From an uncultured Methanosarcinales archaeon (GTDB lineage Archaea > Nanobdellota > Nanobdellia > Woesearchaeales > ARS49), in contig CAZWVL010000004.1 of the NCBI GenBank assembly GCA_964637115.1, forward strand, positions 1 through 64,000: a stretch of 64,000 nt of DNA. Reading direction: 5' to 3'. Under the pieces are notes generated by a model. It saw only the letters and a program-made list of their open reading frames with translations, did not search any database and had not been told where the DNA came from. The translations under genes were made by a program, and so were the position numbers. Positions 8,712 through 29,557 of the stretch are shown piece by piece (positions within the stretch are counted from its first letter, which is position 1; every line of letters begins with the position of its first letter).

Positions 8712-9827
8712 ATGAAAAAATTGCTTGTAATAACAACGGTCGCATTATTGTTCTTAGTGGCATGTGCTCAGGTTGAGCAAAAGCCGTTCAAAGTTGGTAT
8801 AGTCGCTCCAATGACTGGTCCAAATGCGTGGATTGGAGAATTCGTCGTTGGCTCATTGGAAATTGCAAAAGACGAGCTTAATGCTCAAGGCGGCGTGAAT
8901 GGAAAAGCTGTTGAATTTGTTCTCGAGGACGCTGACAATGCGGCCAAGAGTACAACAGGCACGACAAAACTTATTCAGCAGGATAATGTTGATTTGATAT
9001 ACTCTGTGACAACACCAGTGACTGCCGGTGCAAGCGCGATTGCTGAGCAAAATGGCGTTCCGTTGTTCGGCTTTACGGCTGTTCAGACATTTGCCAAGAA
9101 AAACACTTGGGTGTTCAGCGATTTGCGTGATATTGTTAACGAGTGCACATTGTTGGCGCAGACTGCATTAAAGAACAATCATTTGAAACTTGCGTTTCTC
9201 GGTAATGACGCAGATTTTAGCGTTGAATGCCTTGAGACATTGAAGAAAGAGTTCGTACCAAATGGAGGCACAATTGTTGCGAATGAAATGAAGGTAAGTA
9301 ATGACCCTGATGCACGCACGAGTGTTACCAAGCTGAAGAACGCACAGCCTGATGGTGTTTTACTGTTGTGCTGGCCTCCTGATTGTAATCTTATTTACAA
9401 GCAGATGGTTGAGTTGGACTTTATTCCGCAGTTCTATCTTCCGGTTGGAGCTCCATTGGCTGCTAATCCGGTATCAGTTAAGGATTTAGACAAGAATCGC
9501 ATCCTGAAGAATGCATTTGCGGGCGACCAAGGAGTTTCCGCAGATAACCCTTCACCAGAACTTGCAGCGTTTTTCAGTAAACTCGACGCAAAGCTGAAGA
9601 AGACTATTCGCTATGTTGACGCTGCGGCCGCGTATGATAATATGCACGAAATTGCTGTTGCAGCCGGTAAGTGTCCTGAAATAACGAAGGACTGTTTGCG
9701 TGAAAAACTTGCAGAGACTGATTATACTGGAGTTGCAGGCCACGTTGCATTTGAAGGCAGGCATTTTGCTGCAAGACCCCCGCGCATCATACAATATAAG
9801 GTTGACAAGTGGGTGCCGTACTCATAA
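8712..9827 (+). CDS. SBP2: Liv-type substrate-binding lipoprotein (close paralog of SBP8)
   Basis: Lipobox LVAC; KVGIVAPMTGPNA, ELNAQGGVNG, AAYD. Confidence 0.9.
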   Translation: MKKLLVITTVALLFLVACAQVEQKPFKVGIVAPMTGPNAWIGEFVVGSLEIAKDELNAQGGVNGKAVEFVLEDADNAAKSTTGTTKLIQQDNVDLIYSVTTPVTAGASAIAEQNGVPLFGFTAVQTFAKKNTWVFSDLRDIVNECTLLAQTALKNNHLKLAFLGNDADFSVECLETLKKEFVPNGGTIVANEMKVSNDPDARTSVTKLKNAQPDGVLLLCWPPDCNLIYKQMVELDFIPQFYLPVGAPLAANPVSVKDLDKNRILKNAFAGDQGVSADNPSPELAAFFSKLDAKLKKTIRYVDAAAAYDNMHEIAVAAGKCPEITKDCLREKLAETDYTGVAGHVAFEGRHFAARPPRIIQYKVDKWVPYS

Positions 9828-9828
9828 A

Positions 9829-10239
9829 TTATTTTTCTTTCATTAATTGGCGGACATGCTCGAGTAATTTCCGCTGGCCTTGTTTGAGCAGTTTCTTCTG
9901 TTTTTCTTGAAGTTCTCTTATTCGTGCACCGGCTTGTTGATAATGCATTTCATATATGCGCTTATAAAACACTTCCACGCGCGGGTCACCAACGTTTGGC
10001 CCGGAAAATGTCTTCGTTTTATATTCGCTTACTCCAAGTTCAACCCGAAAACAAAAAGCAGAAATGCAAAAAATAGGATCGCAATCACCAAGTCTGGAAT
10101 CTTTGCTTACCTGAACAGATATGTCTTGATAGGTACCGGTATAAGTAAACTCATTGTTAAAACAATTGTGCCCGTACCTCCATTCTTTCACTTTCTTCCC
10201 AAGCTTCAGAAGCTCGTCCAAGGAGAGTTCGTCGGTCAT
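9829..10239 (-). CDS. Hypothetical protein, 'MTDELSL' family member (136 aa)
   Basis: Begins MTDELSLDELLKLGKKVKEW; ATGA overlap with upstream gene. Confidence 0.75.
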   Translation of the reverse strand: MTDELSLDELLKLGKKVKEWRYGHNCFNNEFTYTGTYQDISVQVSKDSRLGDCDPIFCISAFCFRVELGVSEYKTKTFSGPNVGDPRVEVFYKRIYEMHYQQAGARIRELQEKQKKLLKQGQRKLLEHVRQLMKEK

Positions 10240-10676
10240 TTCAGCATTCTCTTGACATACCTAAGTAATTCCTGAGGGCCTTTTTTGAGTAATTTATTTT
10301 GCTCTTTGTCAATTTCTCTTTGTTTCATTTCAAATTGTTTGCAATACGCTGTCTCCACACTTTCATAAAATAGATAAACCTTTTCATCACCTTTGAATTT
10401 TTTAGGTACAGCGTGCCGATAACGCTTGCTCTCACCTAATTTGACATGACGACAAGAAGCAGAAATACGGTATACTGTTGTACCCAAGGCACATCCATGA
10501 AATGCAGTAATGATTATGCCATTGTATAATCCGGAATATTTAGTATAATTTAAACCCGGATCATCTAAATCGGACAGTTTACCTAAAGATGCATCAACTA
10601 CATCTGAATTTCTGCTCCATTCTTTCACTTTCTTCCCAAGCTTCAGAAGTTCGTCCAAGGAGAGTTGATCGGTCAT
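10236..10676 (-). CDS. Hypothetical protein, 'MTDELSL' family member (146 aa)
   Basis: Begins MTDQLSLDELLKLGKKVKEW; ATGA overlaps at both ends. Confidence 0.75.
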   Translation of the reverse strand: MTDQLSLDELLKLGKKVKEWSRNSDVVDASLGKLSDLDDPGLNYTKYSGLYNGIIITAFHGCALGTTVYRISASCRHVKLGESKRYRHAVPKKFKGDEKVYLFYESVETAYCKQFEMKQREIDKEQNKLLKKGPQELLRYVKRMLK

Positions 10677-11323
10677 TGTGCCAATTCTCTCACCATTTTT
10701 AGAGTTGCTCTTCTGTGTTCTTCTGTTTTCTGTATTAGCTTTTCGTTTTCCTTTTTTACAAAATCATAGAATTTTTCTACTGCACCATTATTGCATCTAT
10801 GGCCGACAATAGTGACTGTGTCAATTTCAGTCCTAACACTATAATAATCATCTCGATATCCGATTTTAAAGGCAACTCCTTGCAGAGCTCCCATGAAAAT
10901 GCCAGTATATTCTCTGTCAGCTCCACGCTTCCATGATTCATACCATTTATCGCATTTTTTTCCAAGATTGATGATGTTATCAACACTTGTTTTTGCATCA
11001 ATTTTGAGAATTTCCCACGCACGTCCGCGTGCTACCATTTCGTGTTTTATTTTTACAGAATGAAAGAAGGCTTCAATTTCAGTATTGCTCTTGTTTTCTT
11101 CATAGGTATCGCGTTCATACTTTCCTAGCTCTGTTTTTTCTAATCTTGCCGAAATTTTATAAACGAAGTGTTCCATCCAATTTGAAGGTGCTAAATCCGT
11201 CCTAAAATCTATTCCTTCGTAATTTCCCTCATAACGAAGGCCTTCACGTATGCGGCTTATCTTCCATTCTTTCACTTTATTCCCAAGCTTCAGAAGTTCG
11301 TCTAAAGAGAGTTGGTCGGTCAT
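10673..11323 (-). CDS. Hypothetical protein, 'MTDELSL' family member with two tandem domains (216 aa)
   Basis: Begins MTDQLSLDELLKLGNKVKEW; second copy starts SVDNIINLGKKCDKW. Confidence 0.75.
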   Translation of the reverse strand: MTDQLSLDELLKLGNKVKEWKISRIREGLRYEGNYEGIDFRTDLAPSNWMEHFVYKISARLEKTELGKYERDTYEENKSNTEIEAFFHSVKIKHEMVARGRAWEILKIDAKTSVDNIINLGKKCDKWYESWKRGADREYTGIFMGALQGVAFKIGYRDDYYSVRTEIDTVTIVGHRCNNGAVEKFYDFVKKENEKLIQKTEEHRRATLKMVRELAQ

Positions 11324-12390
11324 CTGTACAACTCTTCGAATTTGCCATTCTTAACCTGCTTCATTACTTGTTCTTTCTGCGTAATTCTGCCATCATTGTC
11401 AAACGTGATAATGTTAGAAACGCCAGCATAGTCCTTGATTGAGTGCAAATACTGGGAAATCTCGTCTGGTGTTGTTTTTCCATCACGCAAAGCCGTAGCA
11501 ACGAGCATAACTGCGTCATATGCATACGCTGCAGAAGGCGAAGGTGGCAATCCAAACTTCTCAGTGTATTTCTTTGCAAATTCTATTTCACCGGGTCCTT
11601 TCGCAGGATACGGATAAATTGTTCCTTCAATTGATGGATATGCTTGGAGAAGCACCGGATTATCAGTTCCAGAGCTTGAGTACAACGGAATCTTGAGTCC
11701 GAGCTCTTGTGCTTGTTTGCTGAATGCACCTTGGCTTGGATAGAACGCAAAAGGTGCGTACACCGCATTAACATTCAATTCTTTAATTTGTGAAATCACT
11801 GTCTTGAAGTCAGTTTCATCTGGATTTGTTGGGAATTCCTTGACAATTGTCAGTCCTTTTGCTTCATTGACAAAGTTATCACGCATTGACTGCGACCAGT
11901 CATTCAGACTGTAAACGATAGCTACTTTCTTTATGCCGTTTTTCTTCATATATTGTATTTCGGGCATCACTTCTGCCCGCTCCGTGATCCATACGTCAAA
12001 GAAATACGGCGATGGTTGTGGAACAACGCCTGCTGATGGTGATATAATCAGGACTTTTTTCTCGTTTGCAATAGGGCTTGCTACCTGGCCAAACCAGGTT
12101 GGTCCAACAACGACTTTAAGATTATCCACTTCAGCAAGTTTGTTGATTGCTGTAGCCGTACCCTTGAAATCAGTTTTACTATCCTCAACAATTAACTCAA
12201 GAGGCCTTCCATTTATGCCGTTGTGAGCATTAATGTCATCAGCCGCCAGCAGTGCGCCGTTTTTCTCTCCTTCTCCCCAGAACGAAGCCGGGCCGGTGAG
12301 ATGGAATACACCGCCTATTTTGACTGTGTCAGGAGTTGTTTGTATGCAGGCTGCGAGCAATAACAAAATGATAACTGCAATCTTTTTCAT
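11320..12390 (-). CDS. SBP3: Liv-type substrate-binding lipoprotein
   Basis: Lipobox LAAC; KIGGVFHLTGPAS, DINAHNGING, DFKTVISQIK, YAYDAV. Confidence 0.92.
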   Translation of the reverse strand: MKKIAVIILLLLAACIQTTPDTVKIGGVFHLTGPASFWGEGEKNGALLAADDINAHNGINGRPLELIVEDSKTDFKGTATAINKLAEVDNLKVVVGPTWFGQVASPIANEKKVLIISPSAGVVPQPSPYFFDVWITERAEVMPEIQYMKKNGIKKVAIVYSLNDWSQSMRDNFVNEAKGLTIVKEFPTNPDETDFKTVISQIKELNVNAVYAPFAFYPSQGAFSKQAQELGLKIPLYSSSGTDNPVLLQAYPSIEGTIYPYPAKGPGEIEFAKKYTEKFGLPPSPSAAYAYDAVMLVATALRDGKTTPDEISQYLHSIKDYAGVSNIITFDNDGRITQKEQVMKQVKNGKFEELYR

Positions 12391-13514
12391 TTCTGCACCA
12401 TCTCAAACTTGCCATCTTGCACAACTTTCAGCTTGAATCCAGTCTGAACATTGCCTTTTTCATCAAAGCTGAAATTTCCCATGAAGCCATCATAGTTCTT
12501 AACGTTGTTTAGCAGCCAATCATGCACTTTTTCGCCATCATTGCCAACTGCACGTATCGCATCAACCAAAATTCTGACAGTGTCATATGTTGCTGCTGTG
12601 TGGAACGGCACTGCCGGGTCTTTTCCATAGCGTTCTTTGTACTTTGCAAGGAACGCTTTGAATTCAAGTTTGTCAGCGTCGTAATTTGGATCGTAGAAAT
12701 ACACGCCTTCAAGTGCATCGCCTGCTATTGTTTTTGAATTCTCATTGGCAACAGTCGTGAATGTGGTAAACATAGGCGTTTTAAAGCTGAGTTCGCGTGA
12801 TTGTTTGATGAAGTGTGCTCCTGTTGTGCCTAGCTGGCTTAAAATCAGTATTGCATCTGGTTTTTCTCGTTTTACTTTCAAGAGTGTTGTTCTGAAGTCT
12901 TTTGTGTCTGGAATGAATTCTTCATCCAGAACTATTTCTCCGCCTAATTTTTCAAATTCTTTCTTGAAATGGTCGCGTATGTCAATTGTGTACTCTCTTT
13001 GTTCCGTAATTATGGCTGCTTTGGTAAAATTAAACTTCTCGATAAAGTCACGCGCTGGCTGTATTCCAGCTTGTACATCTGCATTTCCTGTTCTGAAGAC
13101 GTATTCTCCTGCATTGTCAATATTGCTTCCGCCTGTAACGGGTGTGATATACACAACTTTTGCTTCATTGACGTATGGCGCAGCTGCCATTGTGTCGTCG
13201 CTGCACGTGCCGCCAATGATTACTTTGACATCATCTACTTCAACTAATTTCTTGATTGCTGTAAGGCCCTGATTTTGCCCGCATTTTGCATCTTCAACAA
13301 CAAATTCAATATTCAAATCAGACGCGAGTTCTTCTGCTGCAAGTTTCGCACTATCCACAATATTCTGTCCAAGAGAAGCAAAATCTCCTGAAAGAATTGT
13401 TGAGATGCCGATTTTCATTAAGGGTTTTTCTACTGGTTTTGTTTCTGTTTGTATTTCTGGTTGTGCACACGCTGCCAATAGTAACAGCATAATAATCGCA
13501 AATACTATTTTCAT
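12387..13514 (-). CDS. SBP4: Liv-type substrate-binding lipoprotein
   Basis: True start MKIVF at 13514 (ATGA overlap); lipobox LAAC; GISTILSGDFA, EDAKC, DFRTTLLKVK, TYDTV. Confidence 0.92.
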   Translation of the reverse strand: MKIVFAIIMLLLLAACAQPEIQTETKPVEKPLMKIGISTILSGDFASLGQNIVDSAKLAAEELASDLNIEFVVEDAKCGQNQGLTAIKKLVEVDDVKVIIGGTCSDDTMAAAPYVNEAKVVYITPVTGGSNIDNAGEYVFRTGNADVQAGIQPARDFIEKFNFTKAAIITEQREYTIDIRDHFKKEFEKLGGEIVLDEEFIPDTKDFRTTLLKVKREKPDAILILSQLGTTGAHFIKQSRELSFKTPMFTTFTTVANENSKTIAGDALEGVYFYDPNYDADKLEFKAFLAKYKERYGKDPAVPFHTAATYDTVRILVDAIRAVGNDGEKVHDWLLNNVKNYDGFMGNFSFDEKGNVQTGFKLKVVQDGKFEMVQK

Positions 13515-13924
13515 TTCCGCCCTTCTGCAATTAAGCATTCTTTTACATTCTTGCACAGTTCGTCAAGCTCCTCTTGATTTTGCACAGCCATACTGCAAGT
13601 GTATGTGACCTTTACACAATCGGGTTCTCGATCTATCCACATTTCTTGAGAACGAGAAGTATTATGTCCTGCTTTTTCAAGGAAGATACGGCGGTTTCCA
13701 ATCAGCAGGCATTCGTTAGCAAGTGCTTCTTCAAAATTTCGCTTGTTGATTACTCGATACATTCCGAGCGTTATGGATCGGCGCTCGTCAAAATACAATA
13801 ACTCAACATTATTATATGGTGTTGAAATTACAAAATGTTCATTAAAGTTATTATGGCGCTTTCCAACATTCTCCCACTTGCCCCAGAATTTTTCCATGCT
13901 TTTTTCAAGGTTGATTTCTGTCAT
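13511..13924 (-). CDS. Hypothetical protein, 'MTEI' pair member (137 aa)
   Basis: ATGA overlaps at both ends; ends LCKNVKECLIAEGRK. Confidence 0.7.
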   Translation of the reverse strand: MTEINLEKSMEKFWGKWENVGKRHNNFNEHFVISTPYNNVELLYFDERRSITLGMYRVINKRNFEEALANECLLIGNRRIFLEKAGHNTSRSQEMWIDREPDCVKVTYTCSMAVQNQEELDELCKNVKECLIAEGRK

Positions 13925-14280
13925 TTTCTTTCCTCCGCCATCACTTTTTTGATGTCTCTGCAGAGTTTTGTTAGGTAAGTTTGAGAAGAAACTTGAATGT
14001 GATACACATTCCTTAACCCACTACGATCATTAAATCCCATCGTATATAAGTTTCTGATATCATATCCACGTTTTCTAAGAACATTAATACGATCCAATTC
14101 CTTACCTAAATCATGTTTTTTAAATAGAACTATAACAGATAGTTCTAATTCTCTGACGTTATCATAGTAACAAATAGTTGTACGGGCGTTTATGTCATAT
14201 GCACCAGATCCCTGAATATACCCATGGAAATGTTTCCTAAACACGTCCTTTATAGATTCGTCAAAGCTGATTTCTGTCAT
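13921..14280 (-). CDS. Hypothetical protein, 'MTEI' pair member (119 aa)
   Basis: Start at 14280 overlaps the SBP5 stop (ATGA); ends LCRDIKKVMAEERK. Confidence 0.7.
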   Translation of the reverse strand: MTEISFDESIKDVFRKHFHGYIQGSGAYDINARTTICYYDNVRELELSVIVLFKKHDLGKELDRINVLRKRGYDIRNLYTMGFNDRSGLRNVYHIQVSSQTYLTKLCRDIKKVMAEERK

Positions 14281-15365
14281 CCCGTTTTTCTCCACATGCC
14301 GTTCTCAAATTTCGTCAACATGATCTCGCGGTCTATAATCTGATCACCATTATAGCTCACCACACCACTTACTCCGTTCATGGTCAAGTTGCGCATGTTG
14401 TTGGCAACACACAGTGTTTCCGTGCACCCTTCGTATGCTTTTGCCATTGTCATTGCGTCATCATACAATACTGCGCTTCCTCGCAAGAAATAAGCCTGCT
14501 TCTTGTCTTCCAGTTTTTTCTTGAACGAAACAAAAATAGGGTCAGTGCTCGCTTCATCAACTGCAATATCCGCGCCCAGAGCATCTTTCAGCACTTCTGG
14601 ATAATCACGGCTGTTCTCAGAGCTTCCGCACCCAAAACTCTGGAAAGGTATTAGGATTTGAGCGGTAATTCCAAGCTCTTTTATCTGCTTATACGCGTTC
14701 GGGCAATCAGGTGCATACATTGCCAAGATGATAGCAGTGCTCCCTGAATTTTTTATCTTTGTGAATTGTGTTCTGAAATCAATGCTTCCCTGATCGTACA
14801 TCTCAGCTGCGGCAAGTTCGCCAATCTGCTCAACACCCTGCTTGCACAGCAGCGTAAACTCGGCATTTGTGCCGAACAGCGCAATTCGCTTGTTCTTAGC
14901 TTGCGTATACAATTTCTTGCACGCTTCAAAGCCGTCAAGCTGGTCTTTGAACACATAAGTTTTATTCGCTGAAAACGAATTGACAACATTTACATAAATG
15001 AACGGCACTTTTGCATCTTCAGCTAATGGCGCTATAATGCCAGTGGGCATAACTGTGATGGTAAAAAGTGCATCGACGTTATCCACGTTGATTAGCTTCG
15101 CAGTCGCCGGTGCTACTTGCTTTTTATCGCTTGCAAAATCCTCATACAGCACTTCAACAGGCTTTCCGTTTATTCCACCCGCGGCATTAATGTCTTCCAC
15201 TGCTAGGTCTATTCCATATTTTGAAAACTCGCCATAAAACGCATTCGAGCCCGTTAATGGCAAAACTGCGCCGAATTTGTATGGTTTTATTTCAGCTTTT
15301 TCTACTTTAGCGCATGCTGATAGGAACAATAATGCTACAATTGTAAAGACCAAGAATTGTTTCAT
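14277..15365 (-). CDS. SBP5: Liv-type substrate-binding lipoprotein (paralog of SBP9)
   Basis: Lipobox LSAC; KFGAVLPLTGSNAFYG, EDINAAGGINGK, DFRTQFTKIK. Confidence 0.9.
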   Translation of the reverse strand: MKQFLVFTIVALLFLSACAKVEKAEIKPYKFGAVLPLTGSNAFYGEFSKYGIDLAVEDINAAGGINGKPVEVLYEDFASDKKQVAPATAKLINVDNVDALFTITVMPTGIIAPLAEDAKVPFIYVNVVNSFSANKTYVFKDQLDGFEACKKLYTQAKNKRIALFGTNAEFTLLCKQGVEQIGELAAAEMYDQGSIDFRTQFTKIKNSGSTAIILAMYAPDCPNAYKQIKELGITAQILIPFQSFGCGSSENSRDYPEVLKDALGADIAVDEASTDPIFVSFKKKLEDKKQAYFLRGSAVLYDDAMTMAKAYEGCTETLCVANNMRNLTMNGVSGVVSYNGDQIIDREIMLTKFENGMWRKTG

Positions 15366-26507: not shown

Positions 26508-26552
26508 CGATAAGTTGTCACTTGTAGAGTAAGACAAGATTTGGGTGGTAAA

Positions 26553-26972
26553 ATGAACAAAAGAAACGATAACGGTCATGTCAAATATTCACCGGATGCT
26601 TCATTAGTTAACAAGCTCAAGGTTGGAGATCATTATACTGAGATTTGGCAAGGTTTGCCCGATCACCCATTCGAGCCTTCTGCAACAACAGGTGGCAAGT
26701 CAGGCTTAAAGTATGAAACAAATGATAAATACGTCTGGGTTACGCCAAATACTGCTCGTGCACTGGAACAAAATCCGGATGAAATTCTGTATGCCAGTAT
26801 TAAGAAATCTAAAGACAAAGAGTATTGCGCCAGATGGGTAGAATCCATCAGCGGAACTTCCTTTGGAAATACTCTTGAAAGTGCTATTTCTCGAGCTCAA
26901 GAACTGAATATCGAAGAGTTACATAACAGAATCGAGAAGGATCGAAGAAAGAAATTGGAGGCCAAAAAATGA
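26553..26972 (+). CDS. Hypothetical protein; C-terminal half HicB-like
   Basis: YCARWVESISGTSFGNTLESAISRAQE resembles the HicB GxTxEEA pattern; ATGA overlap with SBP9. Confidence 0.5.
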   Translation: MNKRNDNGHVKYSPDASLVNKLKVGDHYTEIWQGLPDHPFEPSATTGGKSGLKYETNDKYVWVTPNTARALEQNPDEILYASIKKSKDKEYCARWVESISGTSFGNTLESAISRAQELNIEELHNRIEKDRRKKLEAKK

Positions 26973-28054
26973 AAACAGCAATAATTGCAATTCTAGTGCT
27001 GTTTCTAGCAGCATGCGTGCAAATAGAAGAAACAAAGCCATTCAAATTAGGTGCACCACTGCCTTTGACTGGCTCAAATGCGTTCTATGGCGACTTTACA
27101 AAGTATGGTATAGAGCTTGCTGTTGAAGACATTAACAAAGCAGGCGGAATCAATGGTAGAACAGTCCAGGTTATCTATGAAGATACTGCTGGAGATAAGA
27201 CAAAAGCCACAACCGCGGCACAGAAGCTGATTCACATCGATGGTGTGGACGCTCTTATTACCTCCACGACTCCGATGAGCGGTGCGATTTCTCCGGTTGC
27301 TGAAGAGAACCGCATTCCGTTAATTTATGCTTCTGCAACAAATTCATTCACTATAAACAAAACGTATGTTTTCAAAGATTATACAGATGCAGCCGGCATC
27401 TGTGAGCTTCTGATGAAACAGGTGAAAAAGGATGGGCATGAAAAAGTGGCCGTCTTTGGTACTGATGCTGAATTTACTCAGCTTTGTAAGAAAGGAGCAG
27501 AAAAAGTTGGAAAACTCAACTCATTTGAGGTTTATCCTGGCGGCGAAACTGATTTCAAAACACAGTTTGCCAAGATTAAGAATGCTGAAAACACTGCTTT
27601 GATTCTTTCGGTGTTCGCTGGAGATTGCCCGCATGCGTACAAGCAGATTCGCGAACTTGGGTTGAAGGCAAAATTGTACACAGCTTTCCAGAGTTTTGCG
27701 TGCGGCAGTGCCGACAACACAAAAGCAAATGCCGACTTGCTTGAGGGCGCATATGGTGCTGATGTTGCTTTAGATGAAGAAAGCGATGATCCTGATTTTC
27801 TCGCTTTTAAGAAGCGCCTTGATGAAAGAGGCTGGACTACGCAAATTCGCGGAAGCGCCATTATGTACGATAGCACAATGGAATTCGCAAAAGCCTTCCA
27901 GGATTGCCAAGATGCTCTTTGTGTAGCCAATAATCTCAGAGCTCTGCAGATGAATGGAATTTCTGGACACATCAGTTATGGTGGAGACCAGATTGTTGAG
28001 CGCGAAATAATGTTGGTGAAATACGAAAACGGCAAATGGAGGAAAGTACAATGA
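26969..28054 (+). CDS. SBP9: Liv-type substrate-binding lipoprotein (paralog of SBP5)
   Basis: Lipobox LAAC; KLGAPLPLTGSNAFYG, EDINKAGGINGR, DFKTQFAKIK. Confidence 0.92.
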   Translation: MKTAIIAILVLFLAACVQIEETKPFKLGAPLPLTGSNAFYGDFTKYGIELAVEDINKAGGINGRTVQVIYEDTAGDKTKATTAAQKLIHIDGVDALITSTTPMSGAISPVAEENRIPLIYASATNSFTINKTYVFKDYTDAAGICELLMKQVKKDGHEKVAVFGTDAEFTQLCKKGAEKVGKLNSFEVYPGGETDFKTQFAKIKNAENTALILSVFAGDCPHAYKQIRELGLKAKLYTAFQSFACGSADNTKANADLLEGAYGADVALDEESDDPDFLAFKKRLDERGWTTQIRGSAIMYDSTMEFAKAFQDCQDALCVANNLRALQMNGISGHISYGGDQIVEREIMLVKYENGKWRKVQ

Positions 28055-29145
28055 AAACGGCAATATTCACAATAATTGCATTGCTGCTTTTGGCAGCGTG
28101 CGCAACGCAAGAATCAGTACAAACAACGCCTATTGCAAAAGAACCGGCAGTTGTCAAGATTGGGGTAACAGTGCCATTGACTGGTGATGTTGCATTCTTA
28201 GGAGAAGCAACGCGAAATTCCCTCGAATTGGCATTAAAAGAAGTGCAGGGAACAAAATACAAGTACGAGCTTGTGTTTGAAGATGACAAGCTTGATGCAA
28301 AACTGGCTTCCACAACTGCAACTAAATTGATTCAAGTTGACAATGTTGATGCAATCATCAGTTTGAGCTCTGGCACGGGGAATGTAGTTACCCCTCTTGC
28401 CGAGCAGAATAAGGTAATTCACTTTGGCATTGCTTCTGATGCAAATGTTGCAAAAGGAATGTTCAATTTCATCCATTGGACGCCGCCTGATGAGGAAGCT
28501 CGTTTATGGGTGCAAAAAGCACAGGAACATGGCTATAATCGCGTCGCAATTATTGTATTGCAGCATCCAGGTGCAATAGCAGTGGTTGATGCTGCAAAGA
28601 AACACGCAAAAGGTACCGACATCGAACTACATGAGGAGTTCTTTAATCCGGGCGAGAAGGATTTCAGAACAGTTCTGGTCAGGTCCAAGCAATTTAATCC
28701 TGATGCTTATATGCTCATGGCGTTCTCTCCTGAACTTGACATATTGCACAAGCAGTTGAAGGAATTAGGCATTAAGGCACCTTTGACATCCATCGAGGCA
28801 TTCGAACTTAGCAATGACCCTTCTCAGTTTGAAGGTCACTGGTATGTCAACGCTGCAGACCCGACAGGCGCATTTGCTGACAAGTATAAGGCTGCGTACA
28901 ACAAAGAGCCGGTATTTGGCGGACCAAATGCATACGACATCTTCAAGATGATCGTGAAAGGCTTTGAGGATTCAGGCAAAGATGCATCTGTAAAACCTTC
29001 ACCTGAAGAAGTTGCTGCTGCACTTATGCAGATAAAGGACTTCGATGGTGCACTGGGCAAATTGACTGTCGGCGAAGATGGTATTGTCTGGAGCCCGGCA
29101 GTTGTCAGAACGATTCTGAACGGCAAGCCGGTGACTATCAAATAG
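28051..29145 (+). CDS. SBP10: Liv-type substrate-binding lipoprotein
   Basis: Start MKTAIF at 28051 (ATGA overlap); lipobox LAAC; KIGVTVPLTGDVA, DFRTVLVRSK, NAYDIF. Confidence 0.92.
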   Translation: MKTAIFTIIALLLLAACATQESVQTTPIAKEPAVVKIGVTVPLTGDVAFLGEATRNSLELALKEVQGTKYKYELVFEDDKLDAKLASTTATKLIQVDNVDAIISLSSGTGNVVTPLAEQNKVIHFGIASDANVAKGMFNFIHWTPPDEEARLWVQKAQEHGYNRVAIIVLQHPGAIAVVDAAKKHAKGTDIELHEEFFNPGEKDFRTVLVRSKQFNPDAYMLMAFSPELDILHKQLKELGIKAPLTSIEAFELSNDPSQFEGHWYVNAADPTGAFADKYKAAYNKEPVFGGPNAYDIFKMIVKGFEDSGKDASVKPSPEEVAAALMQIKDFDGALGKLTVGEDGIVWSPAVVRTILNGKPVTIK

Positions 29146-29170: not shown

Positions 29171-29557
29171 ATGACTGACGAACTTTCTTTGGAAGAAGTA
29201 ATTGCTTTGGGATGTAAAGTAAGACCATGGAGCAAGAACAAAGACGAAGAAGATGAAGATGGCTATGTCGGTTGTTACAAAGGAGTTCATATAAGCGTTT
29301 CCCGTCATCGATTGTTTATTGGAGAAGACTCTTTTGTATCATACAATCTGAAGATTGAATATAAAGGCACAACAATAGGAGAATTTTTTTATCAGGCGTT
29401 TGACCATTCATCTGCAAGAAATAGAGATGATGTTATGAAGTTCTATAAATTTGCCAAGTCACAAAATGAACAAGAATATATCGCAAGGGTATGTGATCGT
29501 AACAGAGAAAAGCGATTTGAAGGAACCGTGAACTATGTGCGTGGTTTGTTAAAATAA
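29171..29557 (+). CDS. Hypothetical protein, divergent 'MTDELSL' family member (128 aa)
   Basis: MTDELSLEEVIALGCKVRPW...YVGCYKGV...VMKFYKF. Confidence 0.72.
   Translation: MTDELSLEEVIALGCKVRPWSKNKDEEDEDGYVGCYKGVHISVSRHRLFIGEDSFVSYNLKIEYKGTTIGEFFYQAFDHSSARNRDDVMKFYKFAKSQNEQEYIARVCDRNREKRFEGTVNYVRGLLK

Follow-up and report, generated by a model that had tools for sequence, protein, structure and literature searches.

Gene organization of the locus

The window (the whole stretch of 64,000 nucleotides that was analysed) originates from a genome of 1.27 Mb (98% complete). It harbors four genes of a family of small proteins, here denoted g216, g146, g136 and g128, which occur as a run of three and a single copy, each behind a gene for a substrate-binding protein (SBP) of the Peripla_BP_6 type:

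10673..11323, minus strand: g216, two-domain family member of 216 aa (open reading frame and two HMM domain matches)
about 11033-11323, minus strand: domain 1 of g216 (HMM match at aa 1-98, iE 8e-25)
about 10679-10990, minus strand: domain 2 of g216 (HMM match at aa 112-215, iE 2e-13)
10236..10676, minus strand: g146, single-domain member of 146 aa (HMM E 5e-33), the protein used for the structural model
9829..10239, minus strand: g136, single-domain member of 136 aa, last gene of the operon
29171..29557, plus strand: g128, fourth paralogue (HMM E 3e-33), 26 nt behind an SBP gene
11320..12390, minus strand: Peripla_BP_6 SBP gene directly upstream of g216 (Pfam E 2e-57)
28036..29145, plus strand: Peripla_BP_6 SBP gene upstream of g128 (Pfam E 8e-41)

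The genes g136, g146 and g216 are each coupled to their upstream neighbor by an ATGA overlap, in the case of g216 to the SBP gene at 11320-12390. The surroundings consist of ten Peripla_BP_6 SBP genes, LivHMGF, membrane kinases and AbrB-like regulators; the window also codes for the RFC large subunit, archaeal-type aminoacyl-tRNA synthetases and a FlaI-like ATPase, which identify the source as an archaeon with a small genome. An earlier note on this DNA had stated that an SBP gene lies ahead of each copy or run, which holds in the window for the trio as well as for g128, and that the bodies are more AT-rich than the SBP genes, which agrees with a GC content of 0.36-0.41 for the small family genes compared to 0.41-0.47 for the ten SBP genes.

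At the distal end of the operon, an SBP gene on the plus strand (8712-9827) is convergent with g136, and the stop codons of both genes are 1 nt apart (9825-9831). There is no intergenic space for terminators at this position, and a T-run on the plus strand is found within the end of g136.

Three further small genes accompany SBP genes in the window. The genes g124 (13921-14295) and g137 (13511-13924), both on the minus strand, are overlap-coupled orphans of the same operon with an SBP gene on either side, and g143, an orphan open reading frame of 143 aa (26541-26972, plus strand), precedes the SBP gene at 26969-28054, to which it is coupled by an ATGA overlap. They were considered as remote members of the family and rejected, as phmmer, jackhmmer, hhalign and BLASTP found them to be unrelated. 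For g137, a search of 5.8 billion proteins returned zero relatives, and its single-sequence fold (pLDDT 51) is too poor for use. For g124, a weak relative (E 1.7e-4) is located just upstream of SBP genes in the genome G008 of the same genus. The relatives of the family inside its own genome are solely g136, g146, g216 and g128.

A family of small cytoplasmic proteins

The family is represented by an alignment and profile of 30 sequences (A4) that was built in the present analysis. The window genes g136, g146, g216 and g128 match this profile with E-values between 3e-36 and 5e-33, values that have to be read with regard to the fact that these genes helped to build A4. Independent support for membership therefore comes from searches of proteins and of other genomes. 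When 1.8 billion proteins were searched with the profile, 34 matches were obtained (69-1014 aa, mostly 112-217 aa), including two spurious long repeat proteins (634 and 1014 aa) and five that are the window proteins or near relatives thereof. A word-indexed search recovered P0002 and P0003 as the only outside relatives, with an identity to g136 of 75% and 64%, respectively.

The most conserved block of the family is its N-terminal head, described by the motif L-S-L-D/E-E-h-h-x-L-G/A-x-K-V-x-x-W, in which the Trp is invariant and which is present in g136, g146, g216 and g128. Its conservation in A4 amounts to 2.83 bits per column, compared to 1.58 bits for the rest. Further conserved blocks of A4 are Y-x-G, Y-I-x-A, L-G, F-Y and a C-terminal R-x-L-L. 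These columns match the shared skeleton proposed in the earlier note, whose assignment of two domains to the 216-aa gene and of a more divergent copy to 29171-29557 is likewise borne out by the profile: g128 is a diverged, true member.

No known family accounts for these proteins, as the earlier note had already surmised. Pfam yields nothing above threshold for any of the 30 members (30/30), and no family is obtained from NCBIfam-style context annotation, PHROGs, the PDB sequence profile or the ESM Atlas. PADLOC gives no consistent match, a search of viral contigs returned no match, and a search for fused or longer forms, itself weak evidence, found none. No description of a comparable family from DPANN archaea was found in the literature. 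The proteins have a hydrophilic composition, with neither a signal peptide nor a visible hydrophobic N-terminus. We conclude that they constitute an undescribed family of small cytoplasmic alpha+beta proteins, here found in DPANN-type archaea alone.

Predicted structure and the role of the head

The AlphaFold2 model of g146, computed with A4, has a pLDDT of 90 and a pTM of 0.80. It consists of a helix (residues 7-15) followed by a strand (20-23), with the strands from 20 to 96 arranged as a beta-meander, a 34-residue helix and a final helix. The head is part of this fold (pLDDT 89-98), and its residue pattern suggests a helix that begins with a Ser/Glu capping box, is held by a Leu staple and is stopped by a Gly. 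A capped helix of this kind would provide an ordinary structural reason for the conservation of the head.

A head that is near-invariant across the family, on bodies that are only 20-40% identical, could also be read as a functional tag for docking, loading or translocation that is held by selection on diversifying bodies. Many members of a large array in a related genome (G028, described below) also possess a conserved C-terminal tail, which is in keeping with a tag. We nevertheless regard a tag as unlikely: the model places the head inside the fold, its pattern is that of a normal capped helix, and the hydrophilic proteins lack a signal peptide. Moreover, a tag leaves the sharing of synonymous codons described below unexplained, and g128 carries the motif with other codons.

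The structure search called for in the earlier note returned no fold match: Foldseek against PDB and BFVD as well as wide and second-look searches with VIA-align gave nothing above background, the highest score (Z 6.1, a methyltransferase) included. For lipid-binding folds of the START, Bet v 1 or PRELID kind, the best scores (PRELID1, Z 5.2; Ups1, Z 4.7; FABP4, Z 4.6) are within the noise range stated for the tool. Overall, matches of the PRELID/Ups1, FABP and PUR/Whirly type reach Z 3.8-5.2 over 48-78 aligned residues and have no sequence signal. The likeness to these folds, a beta-meander packed by helices, is thus at noise level; two-domain fusions of the g216 type are reminiscent of paired PUR repeats.

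Near-identical heads at the DNA level

In the three tandem genes, the head is also conserved as DNA. The corresponding segments (codons 1-20) are:

11264..11323, minus strand: head of g216, 60 nt
10617..10676, minus strand: head of g146, 60 nt
10180..10239, minus strand: head of g136, 60 nt

Pairwise comparison of the three heads gives 3, 4 and 5 mismatches, corresponding to 57/60, 56/60 and 55/60 identical positions. The identity begins at the ATG and ends with a sharp boundary just past the codon of Trp-20, and the bodies that follow are 26-39% identical at the protein level. Near-identical heads ahead of remotely similar bodies, the central observation of the earlier note, are therefore confirmed. 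Allowing for at most 3 mismatches, the 60-mer occurs at exactly 3 sites in the window (0 in 100 shuffles), and the search of the full genome (1.27 Mb) that had been suggested finds the same 3 sites alone. A repeat search of positions 9500-11600 identifies one 63-nt family with 3 copies and no other notable repeat; the second, internal head of g216 is not homogenised. A degenerate head pattern has 0 matches in metagenome and genome contig collections, and a search of genome contigs for related loci found none.

Two candidate systems find no support in these results. The target of a diversity-generating retroelement is not indicated, as there is no template/variable repeat pair (the only notable repeat between 9500 and 11600 is the head). 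An array of secreted paralogues with a shared leader is not indicated either, as the identity begins at the ATG and there is no hydrophobic N-terminus.

Among the heads, only the three homogenised ones lie at ATGA-coupled starts. This restriction to three coupled family genes is what one would expect if the 60 nt were an RNA or DNA element, for instance one that enhances re-initiation, is targeted by a small RNA or serves as an operator. The segment is absent, however, from the other ATGA-coupled genes of the same operon, it coincides exactly with the conserved protein motif, and RNA folding of the start regions shows no significant or common structure (z from -0.9 to +0.9). An RNA or DNA element is therefore highly improbable, with a small residual probability left to a nucleotide-level constraint on the heads that is tied to re-initiation.

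Codon sharing and relationships of the bodies

At residues that are identical and have degenerate codons, the tandem heads share the same codon in 15/17, 13/16 and 14/17 cases, compared to approximately 6 expected (P = 2e-5 to 3e-4). Codon sharing is therefore far above chance, and constraint on the protein alone is insufficient to account for the identity of the DNA. The head of g128 serves as an internal control: the motif is kept in the protein, and codon sharing (3-4 of 10-11) corresponds to chance. The body of g216 is likewise at chance when compared to the bodies of g136 and g146 (11/23 and 11/30 codons shared, respectively, versus 9-11 expected). Between g216 and g146, synonymous sites have reached saturation in the body and show almost no divergence in the head. 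At the protein level, the head of g216 differs from the head of g146 in 1/20 residues and from the head of P0007 in 9/20.

The bodies of g136 and g146 share 22/33 codons, above the 11.9 expected by chance. This pair may be younger, or may have been converted over a wider tract, and part of its similarity possibly reflects a younger duplication. The same excess could be taken to indicate that the whole trio arose by tandem duplication not long ago, and that positive selection then drove the bodies apart very quickly while the head was retained. For g216, such a history is difficult to reconcile with codon sharing at chance in the body and with the contrast in synonymous divergence from g146 between body and head.

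A tree constructed from the bodies only, with the heads left out, points in the same direction. Within this tree, g136 groups with P0002 and P0003 (starred support) and g146 is sister to them (88/84), whereas domain 2 of g216 groups with domain 2 of the 217-aa protein P0007 (97/89). The two-domain architecture is common to g216 and P0007. Recent duplication of the trio is quite unlikely given that g136 is placed with outside proteins and not with g146, and that domain 2 of g216 is grouped with that of P0007, a protein of the same two-domain architecture. The bodies are homologous to one another, with stable relatives in other organisms, and the genes are most plausibly old paralogues.

We note that the heads group by genome and the bodies according to kinship between organisms, as is characteristic of concerted evolution; the comparison underlying this statement is made at the level of codons within genomes and at the level of proteins between genomes. 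The pattern indicates probable head-limited gene conversion among adjacent paralogues. Elevated codon sharing of heads recurs in the array of G028, with 0.62 for adjacent genes and 0.50 for genes at least 8 genes apart, compared to 0.35 expected. The bodies of distant pairs in this array are at expectation (0.40 versus 0.40). Homogenisation is not universal, since the heads of P0003, P0008 and P0013, which derive from NCBI contig(s) of 12,539 bp, differ from one another.

Distribution and genomic neighborhoods

Profile matches were obtained in 15/301 genomes of the order, 5/77 of the taxonomic family and 2/15 of the genus. A sample of the phylum likewise gave 15/401, every one in the same class. 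These tallies take in two genomes flagged as unpublished, G010 (no match) and G563 (one weak match). The prevalence among the sampled related archaeal genomes is about 4%.

A counterpart to the locus is found in G003 (C1:50000-64000), a genome of the same genus. The region is syntenic and consists of a kinase, an AbrB regulator, a porin-like gene, two SBP genes, a family member and a further SBP gene; it ends with a convergent SBP gene followed by a GlyRS-like gene (by eye). The family member of G003 has 100 aa and a shortened head, and is present as a single ATGA-coupled copy behind an SBP gene. The locus represents a simpler version of the operon and is useful for dating the expansion in the present genome.

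The largest array is found in G028 (C30:1-19400), where about 38 family genes are arranged in tandem. All are overlap-coupled, many are two-domain genes, and no SBP gene is found among them. In this array, the tails W-Y-R-R-x-G-K/R encode AGGAGG in their Arg-Arg codons in 17/17 cases, about 9 nt before the ATGA-overlapped start of the next gene. This position implies that the conserved tail doubles as a ribosome-binding site. Upstream of the array and on the same strand (G028:C30:19000-36000), a Na/Ca exchanger gene and large unannotated genes are located, two of which encode AAA+-type ATPases of 590 and 766 aa.

Elsewhere, the neighbors are mixed and include DTD, MutL, SerRS, TrmB, an integrase, MutS, AbrB-like proteins and an aminotransferase. 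In a genome of another order (G440:C26:3500-7600), the family gene is located between genes resembling aIF5B, S6e and aIF2-gamma (by eye). SBP neighbors are confined to the source genome and the syntenic G003 (0 of about 29 loci in other lineages). Since the link to SBP genes is present in one congener alone, it is inherited within the genus and not a property of the family. A role as accessory component of the LIV ABC transporter was rejected accordingly, as the family is not consistently found together with SBP or Liv genes in different lineages.

Interpretation and comparison with known systems

We assign a probability of about 0.62 to the combined reading that the three genes are old paralogues of an undescribed family with a structural head, that their heads were recently subject to head-limited conversion, and that they are not swappable cassettes. 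According to this reading, the first 20 residues would be the signature of the family, an N-terminal helix running into the first strand at the invariant Trp, and its structural role would keep the head protein constant while the bodies drift. Homologous recombination between the three adjacent genes, by gene conversion or unequal crossing-over, would then have recently copied the head type of g136, P0002 and P0003 over other heads, most clearly in the case of g216. The tract would be limited to the head as the sole segment in which the paralogues are still similar enough in DNA. The family genes occupy the end of a long SBP operon whose genes are translationally coupled, and one congener has its copy in the same position.

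The earlier note had offered cassette exchange or gene conversion as the process behind a conserved head and a variable body, and of the two only conversion is supported, by the codon sharing of the heads. Programmed cassette exchange, or variation of the antigenic type with the head as recombination anchor, would also give rise to sharp-edged, identical heads ahead of divergent bodies; arrays of up to about 38 genes do exist, and the sharing of head codons recurs in a second genome (G028). Yet the region from 9500 to 11600 contains neither silent nor truncated cassettes, and neither a second (3') anchor nor other repeats, the annotated neighbors include no recombinase, all copies are full-length, co-translated open reading frames, and the bodies have stable relatives across organisms. 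Programmed exchange is very unlikely for these reasons. The earlier note had itself set an ordinary, conserved structural element against its proposal, and this half of the counter-argument applies to the head, as is evident from its conservation in A4. A conserved head with a variable body is the conservation pattern of the family itself. The cassette-like look of the locus is the result of a conserved N-terminal structural motif and probable head-limited gene conversion acting together.

A similar process is known from the erp genes of Borrelia, which have a conserved 5' homology region and undergo segmental gene conversion in tandem multigene families. Shared with this type are the near-identical, sharp-edged 5' segment ahead of diverged bodies of neighboring paralogues and a codon identity beyond the needs of protein constraint. 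Unlike the erp type, the tract described here starts at the ATG, includes no promoter or signal peptide, belongs to cytoplasmic proteins and covers 60 nt on a structural motif.

The family also invites comparison with the orphan immunity-gene arrays found in polymorphic toxin systems, which it resembles in the small size, fast divergence and cytoplasmic nature of its proteins, in its patchy distribution and in a GC content below that of the surroundings. It differs in that its arrays consist of a single family and are accompanied by neither a toxin gene nor toxin-tip homology regions, and in that it matches no Imm-type Pfam family. A polymorphic-toxin immunity array was rejected, as the annotated neighbors (Peripla_BP_6 SBPs, LivHMGF, kinases and AbrB-like regulators) include no toxins or toxin-tip fragments. 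The comparison with immunity or variable-antigen arrays made in the earlier note is not upheld, given annotated neighbors with neither a toxin gene nor a recombinase.

With respect to function, the expansion into arrays, the rapid divergence, the patchy distribution and the low GC content weakly favor a diversifying binding role. A tentative guess, to which we give clearly less than even odds, is a fast-evolving binding module that pairs via its C-terminal helices and acts in conflict or partner recognition. A far-reaching extension is a system specific to DPANN archaea, in which a homogenised N-terminal module would serve both as folding core and as docking or translocation handle on diversifying binding proteins, with head-anchored recombination making new combinations. 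Such a system is a long shot; if true, some lineages would maintain dozens of co-translated copies for host-symbiont interaction or immunity.

The family is new, the evolutionary process is familiar, and no long-standing question is opened. The small genomes of DPANN archaea are full of unannotated genes, and for one family among these a profile, a structural model, a distribution and a description of its array behavior are now available. The locus provides a clean example, with an internal control, of probable gene conversion that is confined to a structural motif of 60 nt. In one relative the family has grown to about 38 coupled genes, which is suggestive of a role that is subject to diversifying pressure.
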